Assembly: GCA_030704615.1 (NCBI GenBank) | Contig: CM060731.1 | Location: 18,042,001-18,106,000 of the forward strand | DNA: 64,000 bases | DNA from: Takakia lepidozioides | Lineage: Eukaryota > Plantae > Bryophyta | Reading direction: 5' to 3' | Part shown: in pieces, positions 26,164 through 60,263 of the stretch | How positions within the stretch are numbered: the first letter of the stretch is position 1 | Layout of the letters: every line of letters starts with the position of its first letter | Notes under the pieces: generated by a model | Database searches by the model: none | Told to the model about the DNA's origin: nothing | Seen by the model: the letters and a program-made list of their open reading frames with translations, nothing else | Made by a program: the position numbers and the translations under genes

Positions 26164-26239
26164 AGAAAAATAACTATACAGAGTCCTCCCTGCACCTTCA
26201 CCCTGACAGGCACCCAGCTAACAAGACTGGGCTTACATG

Positions 26240-30316: not shown

Positions 30317-30590
30317 TAGAGTAGTGCCGGAGGGATCCTCGGATTTGAGGGTTAAGACTGCCACGGCGGCGCCATGGCAAGCTGCAGCTGCTAGGTTGAT
30401 GGAGCTGTCAGCTAGGCCAGCCATTGAGCGCGCCATGGTGACACCTGGAGTTGTCATGTTAGACAACCAGGATGACATTTTCTGTTTGAGTGGACCGGCG
30501 GGCAAGAGGTACCGGCCACTGCGGGTCTTGTTGGACTCGGGAGCTCAGCCACTGATGCTGGGCAGAGCTGCTATTGCAGGCTTGGGCAGA
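30317..30590 (+). pseudogene. Retroviral-type aspartic protease fragment, probably from element 1
   Basis: LRVLLDSGAQPLMLG; same strand as the pol at 33629. Confidence 0.7.
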
Positions 30591-33121: not shown

Positions 33122-33621
33122 NNNNNNNNNNNNNNNNNNNNNNNNNNNNNNNNNNNNNNNNNNNNNNNNNNNNNNNNNNNNNNNNNNNNNNNNNNNNNNN
33201 NNNNNNNNNNNNNNNNNNNNNNNNNNNNNNNNNNNNNNNNNNNNNNNNNNNNNNNNNNNNNNNNNNNNNNNNNNNNNNNNNNNNNNNNNNNNNNNNNNNN
33301 NNNNNNNNNNNNNNNNNNNNNNNNNNNNNNNNNNNNNNNNNNNNNNNNNNNNNNNNNNNNNNNNNNNNNNNNNNNNNNNNNNNNNNNNNNNNNNNNNNNN
33401 NNNNNNNNNNNNNNNNNNNNNNNNNNNNNNNNNNNNNNNNNNNNNNNNNNNNNNNNNNNNNNNNNNNNNNNNNNNNNNNNNNNNNNNNNNNNNNNNNNNN
33501 NNNNNNNNNNNNNNNNNNNNNNNNNNNNNNNNNNNNNNNNNNNNNNNNNNNNNNNNNNNNNNNNNNNNNNNNNNNNNNNNNNNNNNNNNNNNNNNNNNNN
33601 NNNNNNNNNNNNNNNNNNNNN
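33122..33621. other. Assembly gap (500 N)
   Basis: Run of N. Confidence 1.
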
Positions 33622-35467
33622 GTGGGCCGTGGCACACTTCAGGTGCTATCTATACGGCAATCTTTTCACCCTTGTCACGGATCACCAGCCACTCAAGTGG
33701 TTGATGGAGTCAGACAAGCTTACGGGGAAGCTTGCACGGTGGGCACTTATACTCCAGGAGTATGACTTTCAGGTTGTGCATCGACCGGGTTTGGTCAATC
33801 GGGATGCGGATGGATTGAGTCGCAATCCATGCATGAGCCAGGAGGATGACACTGGAGCTCGGTGGCATGGTGAGACGGACGAGGAGATGGTGCCGGGATG
33901 GCACGCATCTGCATTTTTGTGTATCTTGGCATCGGGAGGTCAGATTGGACCTACAACAGGGATGACTGTAGACGGAGTGTCTGAGGACCCTGAGGCTAGT
34001 GATGAGCTAGGTGGTGCCAGAGATATACATGAGGATTCGGCTGTGTTGGACTACCTCCGCACGAGAGACACGGCAGCCATTGTGACTGCCAGGGAGAGGG
34101 ATCGGATCCTGCAACGAGCCAAGAGGTTCAAGTGGGAGGGGATACACCTACTTCGAGTGTGGGAGGATGGTTGGGTGAGGATTGTGCCTCACCCCACACA
34201 GCGTGCACGGTTAGTGCGCCATGCCCATGAGGAGTTGGGGCATTTTGGAGTGCGACGCACTCACAGTTTACTGCAGGGGCAGTATTGGTGGCGTGGTATG
34301 CATACAGAGGTGCAACAATTCGTGGCTAGGTGCATGGTGTGTGACAGGGTGCGTGCTTCATTCCACGCCCCTACACCACAGTTGCATCCTTTACCAATCA
34401 TGGGATTGGGCTACAGGTGGAGTCTTGACTTCGCAAGACCGTTGCCACTGACTATGCGCCACCACAGATATGTGTTGGTGATGGTGGAGCACTTCTCCAA
34501 GTGGATTGAGTTGGTTCAATTGCCTGACAAGGCTAGTGAGGGGGCTGCGTATGCATTCTTGGATCGTGTGCTTAGCCGATTTGGTGCTCCAGCTGAGGTA
34601 CTCACAGACCAAGGGAGAGAGTTCTTGGGGGAGTTTCAGGCTTTGTGTGATAAAGCCTTGATAGACCACCGCACCACTTCTCGGGATCATCCTGAGGCCG
34701 ATGGCTTAGCAGAGAGAGTTGTTCAGACGGTGAAGAGGGGTTTGCGCAAGTATGGCTTGCAGAAGGGACACCTAGGAGATTGGGATCTTCAGGTTCCTTG
34801 GTTAGCCCTGGGCTACAGGTTCAGCAAACAAGCATCACTTGCCTCCTTCTCACCATATTTCCTTCTCTTTGGCCGAGAGCCGGATTTGCCTGCAGCCATT
34901 CGTAGGGACATTGCTCAAGTCCTTAACCTTGACGACCCGGACGTGTGGGTACGTGCATGTGATCAGCGTGCAGAGTTGTTCAAGAAAGTCATGCCCATGG
35001 CTTTTGAGAACCTTGCCATTGCACAGCACCGTGATACGTTGAGGTATGCCACTATACGTGGTGGAGGATATCGTCCTGGGGTTCGGAGGTTTAGCCCTGG
35101 TGACTATGTTTATTTGCAGCAGACTGCTCCTACGACTCTGGATGTTACTGCAGGGCGTGTTATCCTGAGGGTTCGAGAGGTGTTGCCCTCAGGGGTCCTG
35201 ATCTTAGAGGGTCGGGATGGCATGACTTGGAAGGACCATGTGCGTAATTGTGCGCCATGTCACCTTCCCAATGTCGATGGCAGAGTTGACCCAAACTTGG
35301 CAGTGGTACCTGCAGGTTTGAGGTGCATGCTCTGTGGGTCTGCCAAAGGGGCAGCCACCATGCTGGTGTGTGATCGATGCTCAAGGGGTTGGCATATGGG
35401 ATGCTTGACACCACCTCTTGAGAAGGTTCCTGACGGAGATTGGTTGTGTCCACACTGCTTGGGATAG
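33622..35467 (+). CDS. Element 1 pol C-terminus: end of RNase H, integrase (HHCC + DDE), C-terminal PHD finger
   Basis: TDHQPL, DADGLSR; HEELGH...CMVC; LDFA...TDQG...AERVVQ; C4HC3 CMLC...CDRC..GWHMGC...WLCPHC. Confidence 0.93.
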
Positions 35468-35725
35468 TGGCAGTGGACATGACTGGAGGCAGCTAACAAG
35501 ACATGGGAGGCCAAGCTCATAGGAGTCAATACATGAGATCTCAAGCTCAAGTTCACAGGTTGTAAGACGGCAACTAATGATGGGGCAACTCTTGCACCCG
35601 GCCTCTTGATCTATCGAGTTTGAGTGTAGTAGGGATAGTGGTGGAGGACTTAGTGAGGCTATGGTCACTATCACATCTTGTGGCTACCTGGACTTAGAGG
35701 GACCTAAGCACCAGCTAGGGCGGCG

Positions 35726-36399
35726 ATTGTGTGGACTAGTGACTGCCATAGTGGGCAGCATAGTGGCAGCCTAGTGACTGACTAGTTGTAGCCTAGTGGT
35801 TGGACTAGTGCTGGACTAGTGGTATACTAGTGTGTGGTGTGCACATGTGTTGTGTGGTTTTGGACAGCGATGTAGTTGTGTAGCGATATGTATGCGCACG
35901 ACAGCTGTCAAGTTATTTTACCACTAGTGTGAAACTAGCTAGGAAATAGCTAGCTTTTACATATTGACATTTGGGATTGGCCCAAGTGTCAATCCAGGGG
36001 TCAAGGCAGATTTAGGCCCTGGAGTGGTTATCTTCACGGCAAGCGCGGGAGGCTCATCTTTCTCGAGTTGAGCCTCACCGCGCCTAGCTATGGCGCCGTA
36101 GTGTGGATTCCCCATGGCGTGGGGTTCACTTGGCTTGACTTGTATTTGAGTGATGAGGTTATATATGCATGAGTTTATGCTTCAGATTTGTGAGCTCGTG
36201 CTTGTATTCTTCTTCTTTATCATTGTGTGGACTAGTGACTGCCATAGTGGGTAGCATAGTGGCAGCCTAGTGACTGACTAGTTGTATCCTAGTGGTTGGA
36301 CTAGTGGTGGACTAGTGGTATACTAGTGTGTGGTGTGCACATGTGTTGTGTGGTTTTGGACAGCGATGTAGTTGTGTAGCGATATGTATGCGCACGACA
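35726..36399 (+). repeat. B1-GC-A2-B2 terminal block of element 1
   Basis: B1 35726-35903 and B2 36222-36399 are 178-bp direct repeats ending GCGCACGACA; A2 is 35906-36221. Confidence 0.95.
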
Positions 36400-40300: not shown

Positions 40301-40759
40301 TTTTCGAGGCTCACATTCATATATAACAATAAAAAAAAAATCATTTTTTGATGTTTCATATAGGACTTCAGTATCTTTAAGAATAGAACAATACTCGTAT
40401 GAGTCCCAACTATCATATTTGTTTTCTATAGCGAGTGCAAAAAGTCCATAACACCTTTTCATATGGACTGTGACAATGTTGTATGCAATTTTCTAAAGTC
40501 CAATACTTCGACAAATCAACTTCATTCGTGGTGAGAATTTAAAAATTAGAGCTTGTAGTAGTTGGAAGCATAAGAGTCAGTCTCATGTCATCATTGTAAT
40601 AAAAATTTGTCTCTAAGCTGATACAATTGAATCAATCTATGTCATGTAAAAAACATGTTGTGGCAGGAAAATGTAGTCATTGTAGCTTGCTTTCACCTTG
40701 TGAAAATGTTGGGCGATTATTTAATTTTTTATGGGTTCCGCTGGCAGCTACGCCTCGTG

Positions 40760-41756
40760 TAGGCATGTCCTTGCCAAATCCAATGGTAACAACTCGCTCC
40801 TCCACCATGTTGAGCTCAATCCGCTCAGCCAGCAGAAACACATCTGCTAATGTGGGTTGGGCTGCTTGTAACAGGGTTGCATCTCGCACCCTTCTCTTGA
40901 GCTCCTTATCCAGAATTCCATACCAAAACTGGATTGCCTGAGCTTCAGTAACCCCTTGGGTCACACTTATCAAGCGTCTCATACGAGTGTACGCCTCTCG
41001 CAGGCTCTCATTGGGTTTGCGCTGGAAGTCTTGCAAACTTCGCAGCTTCTCTGTCCGTACACCTTGGTAGTTCCTCCGCAACTCCTGGAAAAACTCCACC
41101 ACCGGGTTGAATCTAGGCACATGTGTTGTAGTCGTGGCAGGAGGAGTAGTAGCACCTTTTGAACTGGTACCACCTGCAGAAGTACCAGCACTACTTGCTC
41201 CACTACTAGTGCTGGCAGTGGGAGCTATTGGTACTGATGCAGCTACTGGTCGCGTCGTGCCTCGAGTAATGGAGACGTAGTCAGGTGACCAATACATCCT
41301 CCACTCCTCAATCTCTACTTGATGTCCCCGCCTGAACTCGTGGTAATCGTCCATAGGCGGGCCTTCCAAATGCTGGAACAGTCCCTTCTACGCCATGAAT
41401 GGGGTGAATAGCTGTGGATTGCGCATCTGCTGCAAATCACACCAGCTGTCGAACTCCTGGATAAAGTCATCCAACTCGATTGTGCCCACAGCTCCAGAGT
41501 ACCTACGAGGCCCCTTGGTAGCTCCATACATCTCCTCCATGTCGTCCCACAACAATGGCGAATGAAACTGCACACCTGTTGATGAAGCCTCCGAGTCTGT
41601 GTCTGACTCTACAGTAGTTGAGGATGGCGGTGAAGGTGGTCTGAACCGAATACCTCGTCTTGTGAACCCACTCTCACTGGTACTGCTTGTAGCCTTACTC
41701 CCCTCAAAACCCTTGGGTAACTCCGTAATGACACTCACAATGTGCACCTCCTCCAC
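40760..41756 (-). pseudogene. Retrotransposon gag (capsid-like), one in-frame stop
   Basis: PRRYSG...DDFIQEFDSW, LQDFQRKPNESLREAYTRMRRL...FWYGILDKEL (major-homology-region-like); TAG at 41388-41390. Confidence 0.8.
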
Positions 41757-42275
41757 GTGACACTATAAGGCTCTAGTACTAATCTAATAGTGACACGGGT
41801 GGGCACCTGTTGCAGTCTAAGGGTCATATCCCAATGGCTCAGGGCACCTGCACCTGCATCCACCGCAAGAACTCCTATGGTTGGCTGGTCATCAACCCAG
41901 CCTCACCATAGAAGAAACACTGGTGGTCTTGCTGGTCATCACTCCAGCCTCACCACCGACAGCATACTCTAGGATTGACCGGTGATCAAATCCGGCCTAA
42001 TCCCTATGAAAGCAAGCGCCCACACAAAACCAACATGGCGCACAGTCAAGCATGCAGGTGTTGGGGGGGATCCAAACACAAGAAATCAGAATATCAACAC
42101 CCCCACACCAAAATCCAGCTGCAATGCTGATCCTGCAGAATATCCCAGCCCAAAACCCCGGACTGACTGGCCTCCACCAAGAGAGGCTTTGGCAACTACG
42201 AGTACAAGGTAATGAAAATAGTACAGAGATGGAGGGGAAGAATAGAAGCCCGCCCAAGCAAGATCTAATCCTGAT

Positions 42276-43025
42276 CTATGCTATCAACTTCCAGACTTCT
42301 CTCAAAGTGCCTCGCTCTGCATGATGGTAAGGTGTAGGAGGTATATCTATGTCCAGAAACCTGCCACTAACCTTGTCCCAAGCTACAGTAGCTCGCTCTA
42401 ACCAACCCTCCTCCTCTTTCTGCCAGGTAGAGACAAAACAATACTCCCCTATCTCCCGCTCACTGAACACTAAGGAAAACAAAGGTAGGGTCTGATAGTC
42501 TCTCAACTCGAAAGCTTTGAGACGGTTGCGGGTGTCCTCATTGCAAATGACTGCATCTCCTTCACGCACAACAAACGTGTCATTGCTAATGAACCCTCGC
42601 TTGTGGTTGCCCTGTGCAGAGCGTATCCGGCTGCAACCATGTCTGATTGCACAAACTTGTGTAGCTCCTGCTCCTCTGCTCCAGTACACCACAGCCTTGT
42701 GGCTGAACACCTTGGTCCCCGGGGTTGTCTTTGGCTGTGTTCCAAGCCTAGCTTTCACCCACTTTGGTATTTCACCTACAGCTGCAGAACTGCTGGCTCC
42801 AACAGAGTTCTGACTGTCCAAGGCGATATTGAGGCCCTCAATGCCAACTACAGCAGTCTGTTGTCTACTGCTAATGCCTGACTCCCAGTATGCAATCAAC
42901 TCGTCCAATTGTTCTCCACTCAAATCAGTCTGAGTTCCTTGGGAAACATAAATCCTGTCCCCTTGTGTGCACAGGCTAAGAGAAGAGACATGCCCTTCAA
43001 TTACGTCCTCATTTCCCCCAGCCAT
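42276..43025 (-). CDS. Orphan 249-aa ORF upstream of gag in element 2
   Basis: ATG-initiated open ORF in element sense; no recognisable motif. Confidence 0.45.
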   Translation of the reverse strand: MAGGNEDVIEGHVSSLSLCTQGDRIYVSQGTQTDLSGEQLDELIAYWESGISSRQQTAVVGIEGLNIALDSQNSVGASSSAAVGEIPKWVKARLGTQPKTTPGTKVFSHKAVVYWSRGAGATQVCAIRHGCSRIRSAQGNHKRGFISNDTFVVREGDAVICNEDTRNRLKAFELRDYQTLPLFSLVFSEREIGEYCFVSTWQKEEEGWLERATVAWDKVSGRFLDIDIPPTPYHHAERGTLREVWKLIA

Positions 43026-43771
43026 ACAAGGAGTACATCCACAGATTTGTCTCTCATATAGACCAGCACAGGTTCTAGAAACAGAATTGTGGATCTTTCA
43101 TGGCACACTCACACTCTAAAAATTCCATAGATTTTTAGCAGAGTCCTAAAAACAAAAACCAGGTCTAGATTGGTAGATTTCCCCTTTCTGCAGCTATCCC
43201 CACAAAAACTGAGTCAAACAGAGTTCATTTGACAAAGTTATGACCAATTAGGCTCTAAATCATTTAAATTAGATAAAAAACAAAAGTTTTTTTTTTATTT
43301 TTTTTTATTTTTTTAACACCAAAACGTTCTCGCCATTAAAAATTGTTCCCAGGTTACCTACGGGTTCCCGAGGCCGTTCCCCTCCAGGTCTATGCAAAAT
43401 CAAGCTGGTGTCGAACAACGCTCAAGTACTGGGGCTGTTAGGTCCTTCTGATCCTCACTGCGATCATGTGTCTTCAGTGCTACTTGCTTCTTCTTGCGTG
43501 CTCGCTGCCATGGACGCCCTGCATCATCTCCTCACTATGCCGCACAACGCCATTCCAATGGCTGGGGATGCTTATACATGCGGTATGAGGTCTTTCCCAC
43601 ATGTATTGATGTCTGTTGGGATTTAATATTCTGAAAGAGGTACTCAGGATTGAAGACCCAAAGTGCTTCTATCTCGCCTCACCAACAGCCGACTCTACTG
43701 CCTCCTTGCCTCTTTGCCGCTTGCCTGTGAAGCTGCACAGCGCGAGGATCGCTGCTGCGCGGGGATCCACC

Positions 43772-44062
43772 ATATCGCTCATCGCCAACGAAGATTTCCA
43801 GCACATTTTGCGAGTGCTCAACACAAATGTAGATGGACGGCAGAAGATCATGTTCGCTTTGACCTCCATCAAGGGAGTGGGGCGCCGTTTCGCTAACCTG
43901 GTCTGCAAGAAGGCGGACGTCGACACCAGCAAGAGAGCTGGTGAGCTGTCGGGTGCGGAGCTGGAGAACTTGATGGTGATTGTCGCGAATCCCCGGCAGT
44001 TCAAGATACCTGACTGGTTCTTGAACAGGAAGAAGGATCACAAGGACGGACGTTATTCGCAG
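43772..44062 (+). pseudogene. RPS18: Processed 40S ribosomal protein S18 (uS13) fragment inside element 2
   Basis: ATA in place of ATG, then [34 protein letters not shown]...[19 protein letters not shown]; no introns; C-terminal third missing. Confidence 0.9.
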
Positions 44063-45028
44063 GTCAAACTTTCTTCCAGACTGATCCAGGTCCTGTCAGT
44101 CCAAGTAAGTAACCTCTTCTAGAGGAGAACTAAAAGAGATTACGGGGAGGTAGGTTATATATGCACACAACTGGAGCTGGAACACCTGCCCTCCTGATCC
44201 ACCCCCACCATAACCTCGATAGGCAGAAGTAGCAGGGTACGGGTTTCCAATTAAGCCGTAATTCAGCTTCGAAGATGTTCAACTAGTGAAACACACAGCA
44301 GCTAAGAAAGATGCAACTGATGAAAGCCCTGCCATTCCTCACACCTCCACGCTCCCGGCATGCCCACCAAATGAAGACCTAGAAACAATATCGATCACCC
44401 GGCAACGTAACCCTGCAGCTTAAGCGACTGTCGACCATATAACGGCTAGCCAGTCAACGCAACGAGCTCCGCCCTGCTCTGATCTGCCAAAGAATCTTCA
44501 CCTATTCATCCTTTGCACTCCCAGGGTAAGACGAGACGAGCTAGTCCGTGGCCTGGGCTCCCTCCGCTTCAGGATTGTTGATCAAATGCAGCACCTTGGT
44601 TGTTGACCGGTCATATTCCCCGTGTCCTAGCTTGGACTCCAAGACTGCAAGAGTGCAGGTATCAGCGTTCACAGCTTGCCAGCGCTGCTCCATGCTGCAC
44701 GGTAGAGCTTCTCTATAAGCTTACTGGGGAGACAATCATCCAGCTTCAAGGATCACGCATAGGTGCCAACTAGCATTTGCTGCTGCATTTTTAAGTCTCT
44801 CCTCGTGTACTCCAAAGCCTCTGGTGACTTGGTAGCTTTAGCGACTGCAATAACAGTGGCGGCTCCGGCATCGTCATCCTCCAGGCGTTTCAGGGCACGC
44901 TGAATCTTGTGATCACATTCAATGATATGCTTCTCAAACTAAGCACTACTCACACACAGGTAATCTTGCAAGTGCTAACCCTCAACTCCTACCTTGTACT
45001 CACAGGTAAGAGATGATCTCTCTCGAGT

Positions 45029-45376
45029 GATAAACAACCCACGAACACATTGTTGACACAAAACATGAAAACCAAACCATCACTCTTAGAAATAGTAGTC
45101 GAGCCAGGGGCACCCCAAGCTATGGGGACTCCACCCCACAACAACCTACACTCCCATCATGAGTACACTCAGATCTAAACGCATGCAGGAGCTCGGTCGC
45201 GCAGGCTCAACTCGAGAGAGATGAGCTGCGCGATTGCCGCTCTCGTGAAGATAAGACGGACCAGGTGTCAAACTAAACTTGACACCTGAGTTAACACTTG
45301 ACCTAAATCCAAGTGTTAAATACAAATAACTAGTTTTATTCTAGCTGTTTTCACACTGTGCTTATTTAACTTGACA
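45029..45376 (-). repeat. Repeat A1 of element 2 (348 bp)
   Basis: Near-identical inverted copy of 53968-54315. Confidence 0.95.
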
Positions 45377-45542
45377 CATTGTATGGTCTTCCAAAGTCCA
45401 TAACGTTGTCATTTCTTATTGGATTCATGATTGGAGAGTTGCTATGGGTGCGTATTGAAGCTATGAATCCAATGACATATATAGTTACTGGTTTTAATGA
45501 GTTAATTCAAAAAAAATTGATGACACCATCAACTGCAGTCAT

Positions 45543-48500
45543 CTAAAGTTGTGTCGGTAACATCCATTTTGGTCCAGCCATTCCTGCATTCACCCAGAAC
45601 ATGTGGTGAGATGGCCAGGATGCAAAGATTTGGTCAGGTGGGGCCATCGGGTTCATATCTTTTTCAGGAGAAGACCATTGGCAATTCTGACAGGGGTAAA
45701 CTGTCCCCCAGAGATTGCGACTGGGATCATTGAATCCAGACGAGAACATTCGAGAGCAGGGGTTTAATGCTCAATGGCATCCCCATGAAATGGTCAGCCT
45801 GAGTAGAAGTGATGTAGATGACTCTATTGGGTAAGGATGTACACGAGGTGACCCAGTCTCCAGGGAGACAGCATCGAGGTCCAGAGGTGAGAGTGTGGAG
45901 GAATATTTTGGAGAATGATCTGATAGCCAAAGATGCCACGTTGGGGCCCTACTATGTGGTTGATGTGGTCTTGAGACACAAAGGCATGCATGTTCCAAAT
46001 ATCCTTTACTTGGGAAATTGACAGCCTGTCCCAGGCTGAAAAACTTGATGCTGATGAATCTCTTTGGGAAGGGGACGGAGCATTGGTATTCAAAGTCAGG
46101 AATTGACGCATGGTTTCCTCATAGTTAGTAGGTTCCAATTTTCTGAGGTGAGGTCTGATTGTTCCCCAAACTTCCCAAATTGTTTTCCAGAGAGAGGAAC
46201 CCATGGATTTCTGTTTGTAACCATGCACAATCTATCTGAGGGAGGGCCCCCAGACTTTGGATTTGAGGGGGGAGCTGCAGGAGACATTGTGTTGAAAGAT
46301 CATGAGTTTTCACCAACCCCCTTCAGTCCCAGGAGCCTCACCACCCATTTGCTAAGTAGGGCACTAATCTGTGTACCAGGGTCAATTACACCCAGCCCAC
46401 CTTTGTTTTTTGGGAGGCATATCTGGACCCATGAAACAACTGGTCTTGGGTTTTTTTTCCCAGGAATCAGCAAACAAAGTTTCGAATGGTTTGCTTAATT
46501 TCATTGATTTGATAGATGGAAGGGCTCCACACTCCAAGAGAATTTGGTTGGCCACAAGGGCCCGACCAATTAGAGATAGATGTCTTGATCCCCAATATAC
46601 GATTTTCTTTTATAGCCTCGCTCGTCATCTGTGAGGTTGATTCCGAACGGGTGGCCAAGCGGGGTAGTCAATTCACCTTCTTTTAATCATTTGAGGCCAA
46701 GATCCTAGCCCCAAGTAGGGGACTGAGATTGCCATGTCCCCCACAAGAACGGCAACTATCTTGGCCCAATTTACACAGAACCCTGACGCTTCACAGAAAA
46801 TTGAGAGCATGTTTATAGCTTCCATGAGGTTGGCATGGGAGGCCTGGAGGTAATTTAGCACTGTGTCATCCACGAACATTGAATCCTTAATTTCCAAGCC
46901 AGGGAGAGACTTGGAATTTGTTTTGAGTCCGGTACTTATGTTGGGGTTGTTATCCAATAGGTATCCATGTGAGTCAGCCACAATTAGAATGAGAAAAGGG
47001 GCCGGGGGGCAACCCTGGCGCACAGATCTTTCGAGGTTGAATGGTTTGGAGATAAACCCATTCATCGAGACCCTGCTAGTGGCATTGTGAAGTAGGATTT
47101 CCACCCATTAGCAGAAGCTTTCTAAGAGTCCAATTTTTCTGACGATTGCTAACAGCATAGGCCATTCGACCTTGTCGAACGCCTTCTCAATCGTGGAGCT
47201 CCACAATTCAGATGGCCAGCTTTATTCAGACCCAAAGCTTATGGTAACCATAGCTCACTCCCGTTTCCAGACTCTCTTCAAACAGAGGCCCCCTACCAGC
47301 AGTATGACCGCAGCCAGAGAAACATGCCTTCGCAGTCATCCAACAAAGCTGGACCATCTAGGTGCAGCCTCCCTTGATGGAGTCTTCACTCAGACATAAC
47401 TCTTCAAAGCTGTAGAAATCATGACCAATCACAAATCCTTGGGCTTCGACGGTATGCCAGTGGAATTTTATAAATCCCTATGGATGACAATTTCTGCTGA
47501 CTTCTGTGACATGGCCAATGAGTTCAAGAAGGTGGGGGCTATGCCTTAACTGATGGCTCAAGGGGTTATCGCTCTCCTGTACAAAAAAGGAGACAAGAAA
47601 CAGATCTCTAATTACAGGCCAATCACCCTTCTAAATGTCTCGTACAAGACAATTGCAAAAACCCTAGCTCTTAGGCTTCAACCACAACTTCTCCCATCGG
47701 TGGTCAAACCATGCCAGACTGGACTCATCAGAGGCAGCTACATACTAGACAACATCTTGCTGGCACAAGAAACCCCGATCTTTGCGGAAACCACTAGCCA
47801 ATCAATTGCAATGCTCCTTCTGGTTGGCCGGAGGCCCTTCTGACCTGGACCTTTTCGAAGAAGTACTTCGACATCTTTTCCCCTTTTGTTGACCAATTAA
47901 TGCCTGCTTGGAGCTTGAGCTTTTGCTCATTTAGGGATGAAATGGCTTCCAGATTTTGTCGGGCAACCCCACCCAAGCTGTTTCCAGGGCATGTTTGAAT
48001 GAGGGGATGGGAAGCAAGGAGGTGCTGAGCTTGAACAATCCTTTGCCACGTTTTGGGAGGTTCGGGAAGTTAATTTGGCATGAGATGCTGGCATGGTCGA
48101 ATTCCTGATGGATTGGTTCTTGAGGTAGCATTGATGACCATGAGGAAAGCTCTTGGGAGATGTAGAGCCTATCTAACCTGCCATACATATTTCAGAGCCC
48201 GATCTATTGTTAGTCCAGGTGTAGCATGGTTGGGAGCCAGTAATGTTGGTAACTTTCCTGGGCTCTGATAATGAGAAGTTGTATCGGATCCTTTGCCATG
48301 TCATTGCCTCACGTTGTCACCAAGTCCAGGTGCAACTGAACCCAGCCTATCTGCCTGTTGCTCAACCATATTGAAGTCTCCCATGAGTATCCATTGCTTG
48401 ACCGAGGTCTCCAATTCCATCTTAGTGTGAAGACCAGACCAGAAGGCCTCATGCTCACTGGGAGAGTTTGGTGCATATACATTGACTATGGATCCCCAGG

Positions 48501-48830
48501 GCCCCCGTGTCATTGGGCAGGACAATGGATAACAGCTCGGCCCTGCCTTGGAACCAGATTTCATCTTTTTGAGCCAGGGTGGCGATGGAAGGGGACAACA
48601 ATATTGTTGTCCCACCTCTTGTATCTTCAATGGTGGGTTTCCAGAAACTGAGGGCCGCTGGCCAAAGTTGATCACCCAAGGATGCTATTTTGATAGGGTC
48701 TAGTTTGTGTTCTTGCAAGAGAATGATGGCATTTGATGTAACAAGGGAGAAAGCCATGTTTTGAGTTTGGCTTTCTTGAGGGTGGTTTGTGTTGAACCAA
48801 TCCCCCGGATGTTCCACGAATGGATTTTAA
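45543..48830 (-). mobile_element. Degraded L1/Tx1-type LINE ORF2 (APE endonuclease + RT) with an internal ~640-bp inversion
   Basis: LLQEHKL, VNVYAPN, WILMGDFN, RLDRLY; EKAFDKVEW, SVRQGCP, FVDDT. The YRPITLLN segment is on the + strand at ~47188-47825. Confidence 0.88.
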
Positions 48831-49340
48831 CCAACATCAGTGGGAATGGATAGGCTGAGACAGATGGTCTCCTTTGATGGCCTTGAGGTTTGATATCTGA
48901 ACTTTGCTCTTTTGTCTGTTGGAAGTAGCAAGTTTTCCCATGTGAGGTTGGCTAGGGCCTTGTGGCATGTTGTGACCAGCTCAAGGAATAAAATGAGGAT
49001 GGGTTGGACAGTAGAAGTGGTGACTATCTTGGGTCTGAATTGCTTTGAGCAGACTAGCTAATTTGAGGAGTGGAGGGGGGTCTTGGAGAAGACCAAGTGA
49101 GGCCCCGATGCTGCACATTGAGGAGGCTGGCAGATTTAACCCCGTCAGTTGGCGAAGGGCCTGAGGCCCATGGTCGTGGGGGTTCCACCAAAGGACTGGA
49201 AGAGTTTTGACTTTTCTTAATGCCGTCTAGATGAAGGTTTCCTACACAAGACTTTGCATCTGACATTCAAGACAGATCATATGATATTTAGATGTCGTAA
49301 AATTTCAAATATTTGGAACTGATGGTCTTGAAAATATTTT

Positions 49341-52300
49341 CAACTGGGCAAGGTTGCCCAGCCCAAGTTCCATGGAGCTTACAGGGGACCTCAGGTGCAG
49401 AGGCCCGTGGCATCTTTTGCAGGCCAACAGCAACCAGGGGTGATATGTTGGACATGTGGAGGACCCCATGTCAAGAGAGATTGCCCAAAGAGTGGCAAAA
49501 GGCCGGCACAAGCACAGCCTGCACAGTTGCAGTGTGGGCATTGTGGCAAGTATGGGCATGGAGATGCCCAGTATTATGACTTGCATCCTGAGTTTTTGCG
49601 CTGCTTGCAGCTTCATCAAGCTGTATCTCCAGCATACATCTTGGAGAATGTACCATTGATGGGTGATTCTCGGGCCAGGGTGATGGCCAATGTGCATCAA
49701 GTCCGGTCGTGGCTTGGGTCAGCAGTGTTGCTGGATGCAGCTGCAGTGGGGTCTCGGGCTCATCGTCCACGGCTTTGGTGGACTAACTTGATGCCACCCG
49801 CACTACTCAAGCGTGCATTTGATGGGGTGCAGCGGCCAGCACACCTCACCGTGGATGGCATTTTGGACACAGGGAGGCAGTCTCAACGTGTGAGACACGA
49901 TGACCGTTCGCCTTTGGCAGTGGTCAACAGGGTGGGTCAACCATGAGCAGCATTACCTACACTGCTCAGCTTCCCAGGATCCCATGCTTTTCGGGATGGT
50001 GGACCTGGCCTCCTGTGGGATGCTCAGTTGCAGCAGTTAGTGGAGCCTAATGCCGATGAGCGAGAGCGGGCTATGGGGTTTTCCACTGGGACCACGACGG
50101 TGCCTTCTCTTTCTGAGGCATCACGGCGTCAGGTGTTGGGGCAAGCAATGGATCTCAATTGCTTGACTTGGATTATCAGCTTGGCTATGGCTGAGCAACG
50201 TAGAGTGCGGAGTGCATTCCCCTTCATGGTCGCTCTACCTACCGAGACGGTACAGGCAGGGAGTGGGGGCGAGCATGTGAGGACCGCGGGGTGTAGACAT
50301 CCATGGCACACGTGGGAGGTGCTCGAGGTCCAAAGGGAGTTGGCAGCCAAGGCAGCTGTGATGGATGAGGTTGGGGATTTTTCTCGGGTTGAGGAGGTTC
50401 TCAATGATGAGATGATGGGGCAGGATGAGGCCTTGTCATTGACTGAGCAGGAAGGGGGTACTGCTCAAGAGGTTGCAGCATAGCAACCACGGGACGCGTC
50501 CTCTACCTCTAAGCCCACTGGACTTAAGGTTGCAGTTACGGAGGACAATTGGGAGCCTGACATTGGACCCATTGTCACCGGAGGAGAGAGACAACGTATA
50601 CGGCGGTTCCTGAGGGCTTACAGGAATTGCTTTGCCTTCAGTTTGAAGGACTTGGGAGCACTGAAGGGTCAAGAGATCCGTATTGAGTTGGCCACTGACA
50701 CGCCAATCTTTCGGAGACCCTATAGATACAGTGACATGGAGAGGTCTTTGATTCAGATGAGGACTCAAGATCTCTGGGAGGCAGGTTTGGTGAAGCTCTC
50801 TGGTGGAGAGTATGCTTCAGCCACAGTGATGCCAGCTAAGAAGGATGTCTATGGCAATTGGACGGAGAGACGTATGTGCGGTGATTACCGGCCTGTAAAT
50901 CGTCAGACCAAGTCCGATAGGTATGCCATGCCAACACCAGAGGAAATCTTTGATGCCATTGGGCATTCCAAGGTCTTTAGCACGTTGGATTTACGATCCG
51001 GATATCACCAGTTGCCGATCAAGGAGGCGGATAAGCAAAAGACGGCATTCTGGGGGATCAATGAGCACGGGAAGGATTGCCTATACCAGTGGCGGTTCTT
51101 ACCATTTGGGCTTAAAAATGCTCCCGCTGAGTTTCAAAGAGTCATGGACAGGATTCTAGTAGGGGTGGAGTTTGCTCGGTGCTACATAGATGACATCATC
51201 ATCTTTAGTGCTACGGTGGAGGAGCATGAGAGACACCTTCAGGGGGTATTTGAGCGCTTAAGGACGCACGGATTGAAGTTACATCCGGGAAAGTGCAAGT
51301 TTTTCCACAACCAGATTGAGTATCTGGGTCACATGATATATCCTGGAGGATTGGGGGTACAACAGACTAAGGTAGAGTCCATTGCACAGGTTCCACGCCC
51401 CACGGATGTGAGCCGAGTTCGAGCTTTCATGGGGTTAGCAAACTATTACAGACGGTTTGTTAAGGGATTCAGTGCCATTGCAAAGGCTCTAACCAAGCTG
51501 ACCAAGGTGGACCAGGAGTGGTAGTGGGAAGATGAGCAAGAACAAGCTTTTCAAGAGCTCAAGGCGAGGTTGACCTCGGCACCCATCTTGAGACGACCTA
51601 TCAGGGGGCGTCCTTTTCAGCTGCATACAGATTGGAGCATGCTGGGGCTTGGAGCGGTGCTCACACAGGTGGATGATGAGGGAAGAGAGTTCGTAGTGGC
51701 TTATGCTAGCCGCTCGAACAATGCTGCAGAGTCTAAGTATAGCTCATATGAGGGAGAATGCTTAGCTGCAGTGTGGGCCGTGGCACACTTCAGGTGCTAT
51801 CTATATGGCAATCTCTTCACCCTTGTCACGGATCACCAACCACTCAAGTGGTTGATGGAGTCAGACAAGCTTACGGGGAAGCTTGCACGGTGGGCACTCA
51901 TCCTTCAAGAGTATGACTTCCAGGTGGTGCATCGACCGGGTTTGGTCAATCGCAATGCAGATGGGTTGAGTCGCAATCCATGCACGAGCCAACAGGATGA
52001 CACTGGAGCTCGGTGGAATGGTGAGACGGACGAGGAGATGGTGCCCGGATGGCATGCATCTGCATTTCTGTGTATCTTGGCAGCGGAAGGCCAGGTTGGA
52101 CCTGCAACAAGGATGACTGTAGATCAAGTGTCTGAGGACCCTGAGGCCAGCAATGAGCAAGATGGCGCCAAAGATATACATGAGGATTCAGTTGTGTTGG
52201 ACTACCTCCGCACTGGAGACACGACAGCCACTGTGACTGCCAAGGAGAGGGATCGGATCCTACAACGAGCCAAGAGGTTCAAGTGGGAGGGGACACACCT

Positions 52301-53617
52301 GCTCCGAGTGTGGGAGGATGGTCGAGTGAGGATTGTGCCTCACCCAACACAGCGGGCACGGTTAGTGCGCCATGCCCATGAGGAGTTGGGGCATTTTGGG
52401 GTGCGACGCACTCATAGTCTACTGCAGGGGCAGTATTGGTGGCGTGGTATGCACACAGAGGTGCAACAATTTGTGGCTAGGTGCATGGTGTGTGACAGGG
52501 TGCGTGCTTCATTCAACGCCCCTACTCCACAATTGCACCCTCTTCCGATCATGGGATTGGGCTACAGGTGGAGTCTTGACTTCGCAGGGCCGTTGCCACT
52601 GACCATGTGCCACAACAAGTACGTGTTGGTGATGGTGGAGCACTTCTCCAAGTGGATTGAATTGGTTCCATTGCTTGATAAGGCTAGTGAGGGAGCTGCG
52701 TATGCATTCCTGGATTGTGTGCTTAGCCGATTCGGTGCTCCAGCTGAGGTACTCACGGACCAAGGGAGAGAGTTCTTGGGGGAGTTTCAGGCTTTGTGTG
52801 ACAAGGCCTTGATAGACCACCGCACCACTTCTCGGGATCATCCTGAGGCCGATGGCTTGGCAGAGAGAGTTGTTCAGACAGTAAAGAGGGGTTTGCGCAA
52901 GTATGGCTTGCAGAAGGGACACCTAGGAGATTGGGACCTTCAGTTACCCTGGTTAGCCATGGGCTACAGGTTCAGCAAGCAAGCATCACTTGCCTCATTC
53001 TCACCATACTTTCTTCTCTTTGGCCGAGAGCCGGATTTGCCTACATCCATTCGCAGAGAAGCTGCTACAGTTCTTAACCTTGACAATCCGGACGTGTGGG
53101 CACGTGCATGTGAACAGCGTGCAGAGTTGTTCAAGAGAGTCATGCCCATGGCTTTCGAGAACCTTGCCATTGCACAACACCGTGATACGTTGAGGTATGC
53201 TACCATACGTGGTGGGGGCTATCGTCCTGGGGTTCGGAGATTCAACCCTGGTGACTATGTCTATCTGCAGCAGACTGCTCCTACGACCCTGGATGTGACT
53301 GCAGGACGTGTTATTTTGAGGTTCGAGAGGTCTTGCCCTCAGGCGTCTTGGTCTTGGAGGGTCGGGATGGCATAACTTGGAAGGACCATGTGCGTAATTG
53401 TGCGCCATGTCACCTTCCGAATGTCGATGGCAGGATTGACCCAAACCTGGCAGTGGTATCTGCAGGTTGAGGTGCATGTTGTGTGGGTCTGCTAAAGGGG
53501 CAGCCACCATGCTGGTGTGCGATCGATGCTCTAGAGGTTGGCATATGGGATGCTTGACTCCACCTCTTGAGATGGTTCCGGATGGGGATTGGTTATGTCC
53601 ACATTGCATTGGATAGT
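49341..53617 (+). pseudogene. Element 2 polyprotein: zinc knuckles - DNMT3-like MTase - RT - RNase H - integrase - PHD (single frame, few stops, two late frameshifts)
   Basis: ORFs at 49395, 50028, 50643 and 51570 share one frame. CWTCGGPHVKRDC; LENV; YIDD; LHTDWS/EGECLA; HHCC and DDE; PHD at ~53473-53608. Confidence 0.92.
49590..50190 (+). other. C-terminal part of a DNMT3-like C5 cytosine methyltransferase domain within the polyprotein
   Basis: EFLRCL...AYILENV (motif VI), LLDAAAVGSRAHRPRLWWTNL (motif VIII), ERERAMGF (IX), SRRQVLGQAMD (X); motifs I-IV removed by a deletion. Confidence 0.85.
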
Positions 53618-53878
53618 GGGAGTGGATACAACCATGGAAGGCTAACAAGAAACGCAAGGCCCAGCCAGCTACTAGGAGACCTTGAACACACGAGGTCCTG
53701 GCTCAAGTTCACAGATTGCAAGACGGCGACTAACGATGGGGCTACTCTTGTACCCGGCCTCTTGGTCTATAGAGTTTGAGTACAATAGGAACAGTGATAG
53801 AGGACTTAGTACGGCTGTGGCTATTACATCTTGTAGCTATCTGGAGGTAGAGGGACCTATCCACCAGCTAGGGGGGCG

Positions 53879-54403
53879 ATTGTGGCAGACTACTTTATTG
53901 TGCATATATGTGTGGTGTGGTTTGGACAGCGATGTAGTTGTGTAGCGATATGTATGCGCACGACAGCTGTCAAGTTAAATAAGCACAGTGTGAAAACAGC
54001 TAGAATAAAACTAGTTATTTGTATTTAACACTTGGATTTAGGTCAAGTGTTAACTCAGGTGTCAAGTTTAGTTTGACACCTGGTCCGTCTTATCTTCACA
54101 AGAGCGGCAGTCGCGCAGCTCATCTCTCTCGAGTTGAGCCTGCGCGACCGAGCTCCTGCATGCGTTTAGATCTGAGTGTACTCATGATGGGAGTGTAGGT
54201 TGTTGTGGGGTGGAGTCCCCATAGCTTGGGGTGCCCCTGGCTCGACTACTATTTCTAAGAGTGATGGTTTGGTTTTCATGTTTTGTGTCAACAGTGTGTT
54301 CGTGGGTTGTTTATCCATTGTGGCAGACTACTTTATTGTGCATATATGTGTGGTGTGGTTTGGACAGCGATATAGTTGTGTAGCGATATGTATGCGCACG
54401 ACA
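53879..54403 (+). repeat. B1-GC-A2-B2 terminal block of element 2
   Basis: B1 53879-53965 and B2 54317-54403 are 87-bp direct repeats ending GCGCACGACA; A2 is 53968-54315; G-rich tract AGGGGGG just before B1. Confidence 0.95.
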
Positions 54404-54925
54404 AATGGACTTGTTTCCGCAGTGAATGGAATTACAATGGACTCAAGAAGTCTTATTGCCATTGGTCAATTCCATTGAAATTTGGACATAAGGTGGCCAT
54501 TTTGGTCCACATCATAGGTATGGATTTGAAGTGGCAAAATCATTTGTCATTTGACTCATATGGACTAATATATGTAAAACAATAGGCATTTTTTGAAAAG
54601 TCCATAGCTCATCTTGTTTTTCGGATTTTGGGTGTCATTTTTTTTTTCTAAAGTATAAAAACCTATAATCTTCAATGGCTAGGTGGCATATTGCCAAATT
54701 TTTGTAAACTCCTAAATTTTAGTTTTTCATAATTTATCTAAATAACAGACTAAAATATTTAATAAATTATGTATTTAATATTTGGGGTAGGACTCTTTAC
54801 TAAATATGTTCAGTATACCATTATCTATCACTAAAAAACTATTTTGGATTTTATCCACAACTTGTTTTGTTTTGGTCATGGACTTTCATGGACTTGGATC
54901 TGCCGTTTTTGGTCCACTCAACCCT

Positions 54926-56215
54926 GCAACTGCCCTTCTAGCTACTCTGCCAAAGCGGCCTACCAAACCCTGATCAAGCCACAACACAGAAACATCTGGG
55001 TGACACTCTATCCAACTGAGCTACTGACTGTTGGTTTTTTAAAGGAAGGGTAGCGGTATCCCAGATTGCATTGCAGGAGGTGGAAAAATTAACCACCATG
55101 AAGGCCGTGAAGGCTGACAAGGTAAAGCTAAAACCCCGTAATCAACATGCAAAGCAAGGGAAAAGTGACCGTCGCCCATATCCATGTGCAATAAAAAAAA
55201 TGAATATAGAGTCAAGAATGGGCGGGTGTAGAATAATTGGGCGTGAGGCAGGTGCTTCCTAATGTTCAGCATAACCAAGAGCAGTCCAAGGGAAAAATCT
55301 AGAGAAGAGGCACGCAGAACATTGGGATTCCACAATGAGGTAGATCCAAGGATTAGAACTTCAGCTGAGCTTTGAAGTTGGGGTCTCGTGCGCGCCTATG
55401 ACGCCAGTTGCAGTCCCCTCTTCACCTTCTTCATAGGTCTTGCCAGGGGACGGAGTCTTTCCATTGAACACTTGAGTGGGAAACACGGGACCTGAGCAGA
55501 CTGCCCTTGCTCTAGGTGATATCAAAATCTTGGAGAAGCCATGGAAAAGTGGAATTCAAAATGGGCTGGCCACAATCTCCATCAAGCCAAGTGGGATCTC
55601 ATATGGGCAAACATTTGGAACATGCTCAGGCCATCCAAGATTGCTGCCTTCCTCTGGCAGATTGCCAACAAGGTATTCAAAGTGGGGGCTTGGCTGAATT
55701 TCACGGATGCAATAGTCTGTAAATGCTGCCACCTGGGAGTATCCGAATCGTTGGAGCATTGTCTAATCTATTGCACTATTCCCATGAAAACTTGGCCTAT
55801 TGTTCAACCATTGATGAGGGTCTGGAAACTAGGGCAGCCATCAACGATTAACTCTCTCCTCAATTATGACATAGTGCTCCGCCGGATTCACTGCCATTGC
55901 CCAGTGTTTGAAGCTTTCAGGTCAATCACACTTTGGAACATATGGAAAATTAGATGTCAATAGACCCTAGCTAAAGAGAAAACCAGCCTCTCTTGTCTGT
56001 TGGTCACTATCTTTCGTGAAGTTCAGATTGAAGCAAGAAGGGCATGGCATGCAAACATCTGTAGGGATCCAAAAGCTGAACCTGGGCTCCTCCGCAAATT
56101 CCAAGGCACCTGGGGGAAAGACAACATCCTATGCAGCTACGCTTCGTCATCAAGCTGTCATTGGGCGGGGCATCCCCCTCTCAGCTGGCAGGGGTCCTCA
56201 ACCACACTTCCATGA
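54926..56215 (+). mobile_element. LINE ORF2 C-terminal region (zf-RVT), interrupted
   Basis: SYSAKAAYQTL (~54940-54975); IWNMLRPSKIAAFLW...CKCC...ESLEHCLIYC...LWNIWKIRC. Confidence 0.75.
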
Positions 56216-58000
56216 CTCACCTGAGTTCGCCTTCGGATCAAGTGACACCATAATCTACACTTGCATCAGCAATGCGTCCACATTTTTTTTTTAACATATA
56301 GCATTTTTTAACAATTATTTATGATTAATAATCGGGTTGAGAATTGGAGCCTCACAAATGTCCCTCATTCCGGCTATCAATGATACTATAAAAAACTATC
56401 ATCCCAGGGTTTCAATACTTGACCGTTCTCTATTTTTCAAGTTACTTATAAAAAGACAAGATTTCAGGCTACATAACCGTCGGATATCTCGCCGGACATA
56501 CCCCAGAAACCAGCTGTTAGTAAACAATCAAATAACCTCAAATCCGCCCAACACTAGTCTTGACCTTCTTTTCTTTGGATTATTAGGTTGTCGTTATTCT
56601 AAAGAAAAGATCACACATAGTGTCAAAAATTGCTAAGTACCTTTTGTCACCTCCTCTCCTATGCTGAAAACTACTTCCATGATGTGCCTTCTCCACATAA
56701 CACCTCCCTTAGGTAACATTTTTATTATTGAACAATTTATGAAAAATAAATGGATGAATTTTCAAGTTTAGTATGATTCCACTATTTACAAAGAGGAGCC
56801 CCATACACGACTAGCAGCAGAACACAGCGTTCGTTCCGGACTCTTTTTTCTCTACAGCCCCAGGATAATTTCTGCCTAATGCAAGACACTGTATGGGTCG
56901 TTCCCGAGCGGTGTTTTTAAATCTGGCGAGACAAATCGTCAGATTTCGACCAGAAATGGGTCGGCTACTTTTATAAAGGAATTATCGGACTAAAAATAAA
57001 AAATTCGCCAGAAAGCCCCAATGGTTAGATATCAGGAGCCAGATTTTTCCTACGTGGACCTGTTAAAATGTGACACCTGTTATATAGCCACTTTTCTAAC
57101 CCTACCACCTCGTTATTCTCGCCACATAGGCACTGGGTAGAATTTACATGTAGCCTTTGTGGCGATTTTGGAAAAGTGAAGAAAAACAACTCTGTTCAGG
57201 AGTCTTTTTTCTTTACAGCTCCCTGAGGATAATTTCTGCCTAACGCAAGACACTGTATGGTGGTGAGGGGAACGCACAATTGCTGCATGGCTAAGGTTGA
57301 TTTTTCCTTTGTAAGTCATTTCGTTGAATAGCAAGCCATAAAGGGGTGGCTGGGTCAACCAGTTACGTTCCAGATAGTGTAGTTTTGGTGGGCTTTCAAT
57401 AGCATAATTTCCCAGCTACTCCTGTTATGCTGTGGAGCCCATGGGCTTGGGCGTAATCTGGCACGTTTTCCACACAATCTTAAATGCAGTTGCTCAAGAT
57501 TCCCACGCCCTCCGGGCTATGGAATCTTGATTAGCGTAAAGCCCTCCTTGCAGGACCTCACCTAATAGTTGTGGGGACTTTCAAATCCCCTTATGAAATA
57601 TGATCAGGAACTCCGCATGGAAGGCCCTCTTATGGAACGCCCTAGTGGGATGTCGAACCCACATGTACAATTTGATTGGCCGGCCCAGGCCCCACATTCC
57701 CTCGTTCCAGGGCTCTCGTATCATGGGGAAATGCCATGATTAGCGCCAATTGAGTCCTCATTCATTGAGACGGCCAAAACCAATTTAAGAAAAACAAATC
57801 CACAACGGCCTAACATTGGCACACGTTTCTTTCCCAATTTCCATTTCAACGTGCTGTAAAATCATATCTATCCCTACTAATAATTATAGGACGAAGTGTA
57901 GATATCCAGTTATATACCTGCACTACCTCAACTGTATCACTACACCCGCTCAAATGAGGCATCCACCGTCTAGTAACAATCTTACAATCTAACCATATTT

Positions 58001-60263
58001 TCACAAACTACTACCGTCAGAGCCCTTCAAATAAGAAGCCTCAGGTTCATCCCCACCCTGCCCAGATCCTCCATCTCTACCTGGGTGTCCAAGGGGAGAA
58101 GAAACCCCCATATCTGATCCACCTCCCGCTCCGCGCATGTCACCTCGCAAGCCCATGCTCGTCTGGATTCCATCTCTAGAGCCTCCAGGTCTGCCATGAT
58201 CTGACAACCCCCCGGACATCGGAGAGCCATTACCACCCATACCTGTATCGTTGGACAACATGTGCATTCCGCTACTTCCACCCGACACCATACCAGCTTG
58301 TTGGCTGTAGAACGATTGGTGTGACATGTGAGGCGAACCCTGCTGAGTTTGTTGCAGGTATTGAGGGATTGAAGTTCGTTGGCTCATCATGAGTTGTTGT
58401 TGTTGCTGCTGCAGGTACTGTTGTGCTGGTTGCATTGACTGCATTTGGGAAGCCTGCATCATCCCCTTCAAATTGTAGTTAGACATATAAAATCCGATCT
58501 CCAACAGATGGTTCAGTGCCCAGTGTGTGTTGTCAATCTTCAACAGATAAGACCTCCACATATATACAACCTCACCAACCCCTCGAATAAGGATCATTGT
58601 ACATCTATTTCTATCAGATGATCCCCCATCTGCACCGATACTTCCAAGTTACTTGCAGTCCCCACACTAAAGCCTTATGACTAGATCTATATGTTCATTT
58701 CTCTGTGCAGGTTTCAGGGAAGCACCTGAGGTGAAGTGTGACCTCCTTGTGGCTGTGCATCAGCTATGGCCGCCAGATACATAAGATTTTGCTGCAGCTT
58801 CGCTTGATACCTGTAAAACCTCCCTCACCATCATTCTGGATTCCATGACATCTAGGTAGTACATATAACATATTGGAAACTTAGCAGTCCAGGACATGCT
58901 AAGATTCGTTATGAATATCATGATCTATCGGGCGTTAACGATGCTCGCAGGAGAGAAATAATGCAACACAATCTCAAGCTTTCAGACTCTTAAACTGACA
59001 GTGTACATTGCAATGAGATGCGTAGCCATGTGCACCATCATCTCAGTGACTGTGCAGCAAAATCTCTTCCAAGCTACACAAGTTAGACTGCTTATAGGGA
59101 GCAAGGAAATTTTTAAAGTTGTGCCTATCTAAACCACGGACCCCTCCATCGTCATTGGAAGCCCAAACAAGCAGTCCAGCGGATGAAGCACTGTAACAAC
59201 ACGTGGTAAATCACTCAAACGATGTGGAATGGTGGCTGCGACCGGGGAACCTACGTCGCGCACTCATTGAGCTTGCCGAGGTTTTGGTTGTCAAGAATGG
59301 CAAGAATGAGCTGCTTGTTTTCGTCCAGATACTGCACCCGATCCCACATCATCCGCGCACATGATTAGACAGAAAGGACAATTTTCAACCAGGAGTGCAG
59401 TCATAGAAAACGGAGGGGGTACAAGATCAGATCTCGAGTAAGTCCTGATCATTGATTTACATTATTTTCCGGCGACTGTCATATTTCTACACGCTGAGGT
59501 ACAGTCTTACCACTCTCTCCTAACTGAATTCAGGGTTTAGGGCTTTGTTTGGAGTCCCTGAAAGGAAAGGATCTCTCTCTCTCCTCTCTTGTCACAGTTA
59601 GGAAGCGGAAACTCAGGCCCCAGCCAGTCCATGCAAGCCTGGCAGCATCAGGTTTCAACAGAGAGTTCTCGAGCTGCAACTCATTCCAGCTCACTGCCAA
59701 CTTTCACAAATCGTTTCCAGCGCCCTACAGGTACAACTATACATATCCCTCGGCCACCCGAGTTGCAGAGGCAAGCCTGGAAGTCTCTCAGGGATGAGTT
59801 CCAGTCTGACTTGAGACTGAAAATCAGAGTGTTGAGTACAACTAGATCTATAGGCCAAATGGACTAGTGTCTGGTATGGATCTCTGGTTTGAAAGAAGTG
59901 GCGCTCTTTGAGGGGAGTGCATTGGCCATTAGCTGCTGCTTCGCGAAGAATGCAGGAAAGCCAGAGACACGATTGGCCCGACATGTTAAACTTCAACTGG
60001 TTCGAAGTATCTGGATGATGCGAAGAAGAAAATATGAAGGGAGAGGATGATATACAGAGAGTTCCTAACAGTCGCAAGCATACCTGTAACTGACATATGA
60101 ATTGAACGAACTTACTCTGAGATTCCAAATGAATAAAGAAGCCGACAAGAAAGAAGATGACTATTCACCAGATGGCTTGGACAGCACTCCGGTGTCGGCT
60201 TTGAACGAAGGCTGCACCTTACTATCGCGTCAGTGCACGAAGTATGTGCTACATATCGACTCA

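Follow-up and report, generated by a model that had tools for sequence, protein, structure and literature searches.

The window, the 64,000-nucleotide stretch of Takakia lepidozioides DNA analysed here, carries a rearranged and deleted copy of a high-copy Ty3/Gypsy retrotransposon. Its intact relatives encode gag, protease and a DNMT3-type methyltransferase (DNMT) ahead of a putatively leaky stop codon. On balance we regard it as probable that this arrangement packages the enzyme in Gag-like amounts, and that the packaged enzyme likely methylates the cDNA of the element. The features on which this reading is based are as follows.

40758..41540, minus strand: N-terminal part of gag with one internal stop, inverted together with A1 (65% identity to residues 1-252 of Marchantia protein P0007; Retrotrans_gag E 3e-4).
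41541..45028, minus strand: interval between A1 and gag, likely the 5' leader, with host-like fragments (MAD1-like, 44544-44720; antisense RPS18 exon, 43775-44062, plus strand).
45029..45376, minus strand: 5' terminal repeat A1, starting with TG, inverted relative to the body, 99% match to A2.
49347..49595, plus strand: C-terminal part of gag with zinc knuckles, matching P0007 residues 270-354; loose contig ends at 49594.
49596..50201, plus strand: DNMT3-like C5 methyltransferase, C-terminal half from motif VI (ENV) onwards; motifs I-IV deleted; stop at 49944.
50481..50489, plus strand: conserved in-frame UAG followed by CAA CCA, closing ORF1 and fitting the CAR-YYA readthrough consensus.
50484..53372, plus strand: reverse transcriptase (RT), RNase H and integrase (Pfam RVT_1, RT_RNaseH, Integrase_H2C2, rve); stop at 51522.
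53443..53613, plus strand: PHD finger at the integrase C-terminus (tblastn), out of frame here and intact in the second copy.
53870..54403, plus strand: G-rich polypurine tract, B1, GC, A2 and B2; the B1/A2 junction is palindromic.
53879-53965, 53968-54315 and 54317-54403, plus strand: B1, A2 and B2 (the last ending in CA), respectively, from repeat comparison.
33622..36399, plus strand: second family member, preceded by an N gap and consisting of RNase H-integrase-PHD and B-A-B.
6799-7116, minus strand: A1 of the second copy, with a matching 4-bp duplication.
30393-30587: protease fragment of the second copy.

The reading frame at 49332-53372 (plus strand) contains the gag zinc knuckles, RT, RNase H and integrase, and is interrupted by stops at 49944, 50481 and 51522. 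The earlier note had placed four peptides resembling DNMT3A in the same frame as RT, RNase H and integrase, and this was borne out; phmmer aligned the peptides to the DNMT3A stretches that had been named, the fragment alone scoring weakly (E 0.07, with an X at 49944). Searches of the two halves against PDB with phmmer gave chance matches only, and no C5-methyltransferase Pfam match was obtained; both results are explained by the truncation of the fragment. Thus the proposed PF00145 match failed for the window fragment but held for most full-length relatives (63-75% identical among the best 15 rows).

The truncation is due to a deletion, which had been proposed near 49590 and was located at 49594. 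When Marchantia P0007 was compared with the window by tblastn, the match leapt from residue 354 to residue 1001 at 49595/49596. At 49594 contigs of other copies part from the window on either side, 27 on one and 23 on the other in run X1, with further cases in X7 and X8, and the letters of the diverging contigs agree by eye with the sequence of the relatives flanking the gap. The missing N-terminal half of the DNMT was not found elsewhere in the window (best E 1.2). Since the deletion, although in-frame, removed the protease and motifs I-IV, the window copy is dead, in agreement with the inactivity claimed earlier. The DNMT is further interrupted by the stop at 49944, where the relatives mostly carry Arg, and the coding region beyond it by a stop at 51522, which most copies lack, and by two frameshifts, one at 53319 and one at 53466.

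The domain order gag-PR-RT-RH-INT is that of Ty3/Gypsy, and Ty3 RT is the best solved relative of the RT. The PHD finger of the second copy matched PF00628 (E 2e-10), and the solved PHD fingers closest to that of the integrase are those of CHD4, KDM5B, PHF12, KDM5A and ATXR5. Several of these fingers bind unmethylated H3K4.

The termini are split repeats rather than two full direct LTRs with a tRNA primer site. The arrangement A-coding-B-A-B, in direct orientation and complete over 9-10 kb, was found in four metagenome loci (L019, L072, L073, L080) of the 28 compared with themselves, most of the others being partial. The first bases of A are TG and the last of B are CA; together with the target duplication and the polypurine tract, these ends are of the Ty3/Gypsy type. 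The 4-bp target duplication was present in four of six copies, namely both window copies, L019 and L073, and was not recognisable in L072 and L080. These duplications point to insertion by a DDE integrase despite the DIRS-like repeats. The palindrome at the B1/A2 junction was found in both window copies, L019 and L080. No TGG-type tRNA primer site was seen by eye after A1 in six copies.

One block of the window element, made up of A1, the leader and the first half of gag, is inverted (45376 to 40758). Read in reverse complement, the flank at 45377-45380 gives the 4-bp duplication of 54404-54407; contigs connect 45380 on one strand with 54406 on the other, and 47620-49375 is spanned by a single-copy contig. 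These joins indicate that the window element is one insertion that was rearranged later, in at least one sample, perhaps the source of the window. No common sequence was found at the inversion breakpoints. In both window copies the 5' repeat is inverted and lies far from the body, with a matching 4-bp duplication; the second inversion might reflect how the scaffold was joined over the N gap (33122-33621).

Several other observations were made in and around the two copies. In the leader, the RPS18 exon matched Ribosomal_S13 in Pfam (E 2e-27), the MAD1-like piece was weak (MAD, E 0.04), and 43775-44938 also holds a 61-aa piece. The best-scoring entries for the RPS18 exon are ribosomes of flowering plants, which suggests that the host is a land plant, probably outside the seed plants. 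Since the depth over 44500-44850 is ~140 times single copy, a subfamily may carry these host-like fragments. Also inside the leader, 42279-43097 (minus strand) is a 273-aa open frame without a Pfam match, possibly a separate insertion. Decayed pieces of an L1-like LINE (endonuclease, RT, C-terminal zinc finger) occupy both strands at 45503-48900 and 55400-56300. Between the protease fragment of the second copy and the N gap, transposase-like frames lie at 31149-32543 (minus strand), a 314-aa one having no Pfam match. A host short-chain dehydrogenase with introns and apparent breaks is at 27124-28900 (minus strand), and 58001-58648 (minus strand) is a Gln/Gly-rich host exon which we take to resemble the C-terminus of a GRF-interacting factor. 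The intervals 373-1626, 3843-5320, 10325-10811 and 25400-26217 hold tandem arrays with units of 10 bp and 51 bp, part of an unrelated Gypsy integrase and what is presumably a hAT-like transposase frame.

To place the DNMT fragment, its homologues among longer proteins were collected, which yielded 84 of 3693 candidates. They include Calypogeia fissa (75%), 20 Marchantia polymorpha proteins (up to 73%) and three Sphagnum proteins, and the contigs bearing these named land-plant homologues reach 29 Mb. The earlier note knew of no such elements characterised in land plants, where these homologues now put them; it had also pointed to an element of the alga Klebsormidium, and the Klebsormidium nitens protein GAQ93235.1 is indeed a gag-protease-DNMT protein 42% identical to the window fragment. 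Intact motifs, which the note had suggested recovering, were found in the relatives: all three of motifs I, IV and VI are present in 50 of the 84 (Marchantia 11/20, Calypogeia 2/2, Sphagnum 1/3). In these relatives motifs I, IV (PC) and VI (ENV) onwards follow the unrearranged order, of which the window copy lacks I-IV. Motifs I and IV were not seen directly in the other copies of the host.

A family profile built from 20 of the 84 homologues matched DNMT3A (4.7e-23) and DNMT3B (4e-21) in PDB, and more weakly DRM (2e-10 to 3e-8; DRM2 3e-8), M.HhaI (3e-7) and DNMT2 (1e-3). The AlphaFold model of the relative P0008 (mean pLDDT 66) had only DNMT3A/B/C among the Foldseek matches listed (E 3e-15, TM 0.78 by target). 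The DNMT3-like identity claimed earlier is thus supported, and the methyltransferase of the family is assigned to the DNMT3 clade on the basis of the profile and the model of a relative.

At E <= 1e-30 the profile retrieved 553 clusters (50% identity), and most long members of the best 150 are retroelement polyproteins. Among 20 clusters that were looked up, the named ones were from Scenedesmus (one), Closterium (five) and Klebsormidium nitens (GAQ93235.1). In a quick tree the window sequence grouped with Calypogeia, Marchantia and Sphagnum (SH-aLRT 93); this tree comprised 61 hand-picked C-half sequences of 243 proteins, was midpoint-rooted and left out cellular DNMTs, and is used for grouping only. 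Two layouts were recognised. The window clade, Closterium and K. nitens have gag-PR-DNMT before RT, and 41 of the 243 proteins, one of them named Scenedesmus, have RT-RH-DNMT-INT-PHD in one long ORF. The Scenedesmus member extends Gypsy-DNMT3 elements to chlorophytes. Examples of the second layout are P0156, P0072, P0075, L031, L051 and L055. In P0137, P0259 and P0236 (the last from Closterium), motif IV reads GWEC, with E replacing P, and the DNMT and RT frames are fused. The 55 loci on viral contigs contained only distant phage-type methyltransferases (best E 2e-12) and were set aside.

The DNMT of the relatives is under purifying selection as judged from a dN/dS comparison, a check that the earlier note had proposed. 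Between the DNMT half of the window and eight close loci, dN was 0.20-0.23 and dS exceeded 2, and the RT gave dN of 0.15-0.21 against the same loci where it could be aligned; the DNMT half appears about equally constrained as the RT, dN/dS ratios being rough with dS near saturation. Five further loci gave DNMT dN of 0.30-0.46. The common variants within the host were also compared by codon position: in the DNMT, 11 of 15 are synonymous changes at third positions (p 0.002), while in the linker 12 of 24 fall on third positions. The summed contig depth over the element in run X1 was 0.9-1.4 million, compared with ~62 for single-copy flanks; if summed depth, which is not itself a copy number, is read so, the abundance is of the order of 10^4 times single copy. 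The CpG o/e in the element (0.50-0.57) shows depletion no stronger than the window average (0.56).

The earlier note placed the DNMT inside a gag-pol polyprotein. The shared frame with RT stands, but a conserved stop at 50481-50483 ends ORF1 after the DNMT. In the window this stop has the context TAG CAA CCA. No variants of the stop or its context were found among the rows listed at >=35%, and an independent X8 contig (50109-52281, gapless) has both intact, all 19 differences lying elsewhere. Of 80 metagenome loci, 56 contained both the DNMT and the start of RT. Among the 24 close ones (RT identity at least 47%), 20 have a stop and CAR-YY immediately before RT: exact CARYYA in four (L022, L023, L024, L050) and CAA CCC in 16. 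L016, L025, L069 and L079 do not have the signal. The background frequencies after any stop triplet are 0.8% for CARYY and 0.2% for CARYYA. In alignment, the stop and the next bases form a conserved island, most flanking columns being variable. Since the 16 CAA CCC loci form a single Sphagnum-like family, partly duplicates, with an ATG at the third codon after the stop, the independent lineages with a readthrough-type stop would number about 3-5. The signal was present in none of the 32 distant loci, 10 of which carry an uninterrupted frame through DNMT and RT, as do P0137 and the Closterium protein P0236; within the window clade the DNMT is not in the ORF of RT. Bulk expression is thus not required to keep the DNMT.

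The stop at 50481 is, on this comparative evidence, not a product of decay, and it is likely leaky, as in TMV-type readthrough. It is a UAG followed by CAR-YYA, in frame and conserved, as in a TMV-type site; a further 16 loci have only CAR-YY. In plants, CAR-YYA causes the TMV stop to be read through and is effective behind UAA as well (PMC2754532). In L023, an ORF of 1369 codons (gag-PR-DNMT) is followed by one TAG CAG TTA and then by an ORF of 1047 codons (RT-RH-INT-PHD). Gag-PR-DNMT proteins without RT make up 28 of the 243, some being cut short, and K. nitens GAQ93235.1 likewise terminates after the DNMT. From these three observations, the DNMT of the window clade is assigned to the abundant Gag-containing product.

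Two other ways of expressing the same layout are considered unlikely: Ogre-type splicing that removes the stop from the RNA, and renewed initiation at an AUG beyond it. In Ogre elements the spacer between GAG-PROT and RT is spliced (PMC6317226), and the NCBI gene models of P0004, P0006, P0014 and P0051 connect the DNMT with RT. However, the stop of the window family is in frame without a spacer, within the conserved island amid variable flanks. No joint across 50481 was listed in run X8, which is possibly RNA but may be DNA, and this counts only weakly against splicing. Reinitiation could begin at an ATG that comes soon after the stop in the Sphagnum-like family (codon +3), L022 (codon +5) and L024 (codon +14); in the window, L023 and L050, by contrast, the first Met beyond the stop (at 85, 117 and 117) is already within RT. 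Readthrough thus remains the preferred explanation.

Under readthrough, the RNA would yield Gag-PR-DNMT3 in bulk, and RT-RNase H-integrase-PHD at low frequency. The protease would release the DNMT inside the particle, and the packaged enzyme would methylate the fresh cDNA de novo, as already proposed by de Mendoza et al. in their Discussion (PMC5890265). New insertions might then arrive pre-marked like host heterochromatin, which would temper their expression or detection, and the PHD finger of the integrase may read histone H3 tails and steer insertion. More speculatively, the palindrome at B1/A2 could serve the integrase in forming both ends, either as template or as the place of cleavage. 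A bolder version of this account is possible but doubtful: an ancient green-plant lineage, missed by standard LTR finders because of its split termini, would have reached ~10^4 copies in a land plant by filling its particles with Gag-like amounts of DNMT3 via a TMV-type leaky stop, with pre-methylated, PHD-steered insertions contributing a large share of the de novo methylation of the host and integration proceeding from the split repeats through the palindrome without a tRNA primer.

It is rather improbable that the DNMT acts mainly in trans on host chromatin, at integration sites, on rival elements or across the genome, and so shapes the host methylome. Bulk Gag-linked expression could supply much enzyme for such action, the family is very abundant in its host, the PHD finger resembles H3-tail readers, and genome-wide effects of such enzymes in Symbiodinium are discussed in PMC5890265. 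On the other hand, an enzyme on the particle polyprotein favours encapsidation, which is established retroelement biology, and the methylome of K. nitens is described in the same source as plant-like although the alga carries such elements. A non-catalytic or RNA-directed role of the domain, such as nucleic-acid binding or particle scaffolding, is very unlikely. The fusion to Gag-protease would suit it, and SymbioLINE-Dnmt, one retrotransposon DNMT that was tested, left DNA unmethylated in yeast (PMC5890265 Discussion); but the SAM-binding motif I, the catalytic PC and ENV occur together in 50/84, and the fold is that of DNMT3. Least credible, to the point of being nearly negligible, is a passive one-off capture of a host DNMT3 fragment without a role in the element, the outcome that would have undone the claim of the earlier note. 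The window copy, truncated and without a Pfam match of its own, and the apparent host gene fragments in the leader could suggest it, but it is refuted by the 84 homologues sharing the domain, the 553 clusters with retroelement polyproteins prevailing among the long members of the best 150, the purifying selection and the intact motifs. Methylation of the element's own cDNA by the packaged enzyme is the reading that we consider most probable.

Why some retrotransposons carry a DNMT3 has been a question since 2018, and such elements had until now been seen only in algae that are hard to manipulate. Members with intact motifs among the annotated proteins of Marchantia polymorpha, a genetic model, make self-methylation directly testable, and the conserved stop predicts that the DNMT is a bulk particle component. 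Annotations of Marchantia, Sphagnum and Calypogeia list the loci as host genes, which can make DNMT counts too high. The split termini would evade LTR-pair finders such as that of REXdb (PMC6317226); the main text of the REXdb paper has no mention of PHD, methyltransferase or Marchantia. Later papers credit Gypsy-DNMT3 to 'streptophytes' with land plants unnamed (PMC12344493; bioRxiv 10.64898/2026.05.21.726589), and such elements go unmentioned in two papers on bryophyte DNMT3 (PMC10952607, PMC6453930), all as far as their accessible text extends. Our literature search, which did not extend to most subscription papers and key figures, found no report of a land-plant Gypsy-DNMT3 or of its readthrough site.

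The closest known system is KnitGypsy-Dnmt3 of Klebsormidium nitens, described in 2018 by de Mendoza et al. (PMC5890265). Like the window family, it has Ty3/Gypsy domains plus a DNMT3-type domain that is unrearranged and evolves under purifying selection, and it shares the DIRS-like A-coding-B-A-B repeats (peer-review file of PMC5890265). Unlike it, the window element most likely has a land plant as its host and groups with liverwort and Sphagnum elements, and its depth of ~10^4 times single copy compares with 33 DNA-methylase genes listed in all for Klebsormidium. The DNMT of KnitGypsy-Dnmt3 was placed in the Pol ORF with RT (PMC5890265), whereas that of the window family lies at the end of ORF1 before the stop. 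The PHD finger of the window family has no mention in the main text of PMC5890265, and the TG...CA ends and 4-bp duplications also set the family apart from the description of KnitGypsy-Dnmt3. SymbioDIRS-Dnmt3 of Symbiodinium, a retrotransposon DNMT3 that methylates CG de novo, has the same split-repeat layout (PMC5890265), but it is a tyrosine-recombinase element of a dinoflagellate and an independent capture, whereas the window element has a DDE integrase. EpiLTRs of Cymbomonas and Euglena (bioRxiv 10.64898/2026.05.21.726589) are LTR elements too and likewise combine a chromatin reader with a cytosine methyltransferase; the latter, however, is a sister of DNMT4 and accompanied by DAM and a chromodomain, and the preprint separates EpiLTR from streptophyte Gypsy-DNMT3. 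Ogre shares the ORF break after the protease, but its spliced spacer is ~274 bp and it has no DNMT, in contrast to the single in-frame stop of the window family (PMC6317226). In-frame leaky stops are known from TMV (UAG-CAR-YYA), MuLV gag-pol, SIRE1 pol-env and Tca2 (PMC2754532, PMC2194720), and the 3' context in the window matches the TMV consensus; compared with these systems, the window stop follows the protease and the DNMT, which would put two enzymes in the abundant product. The kind of element is thus known; the novelty lies in the readthrough layout, in ends of the integrase type and in how widely the family extends across green plants.
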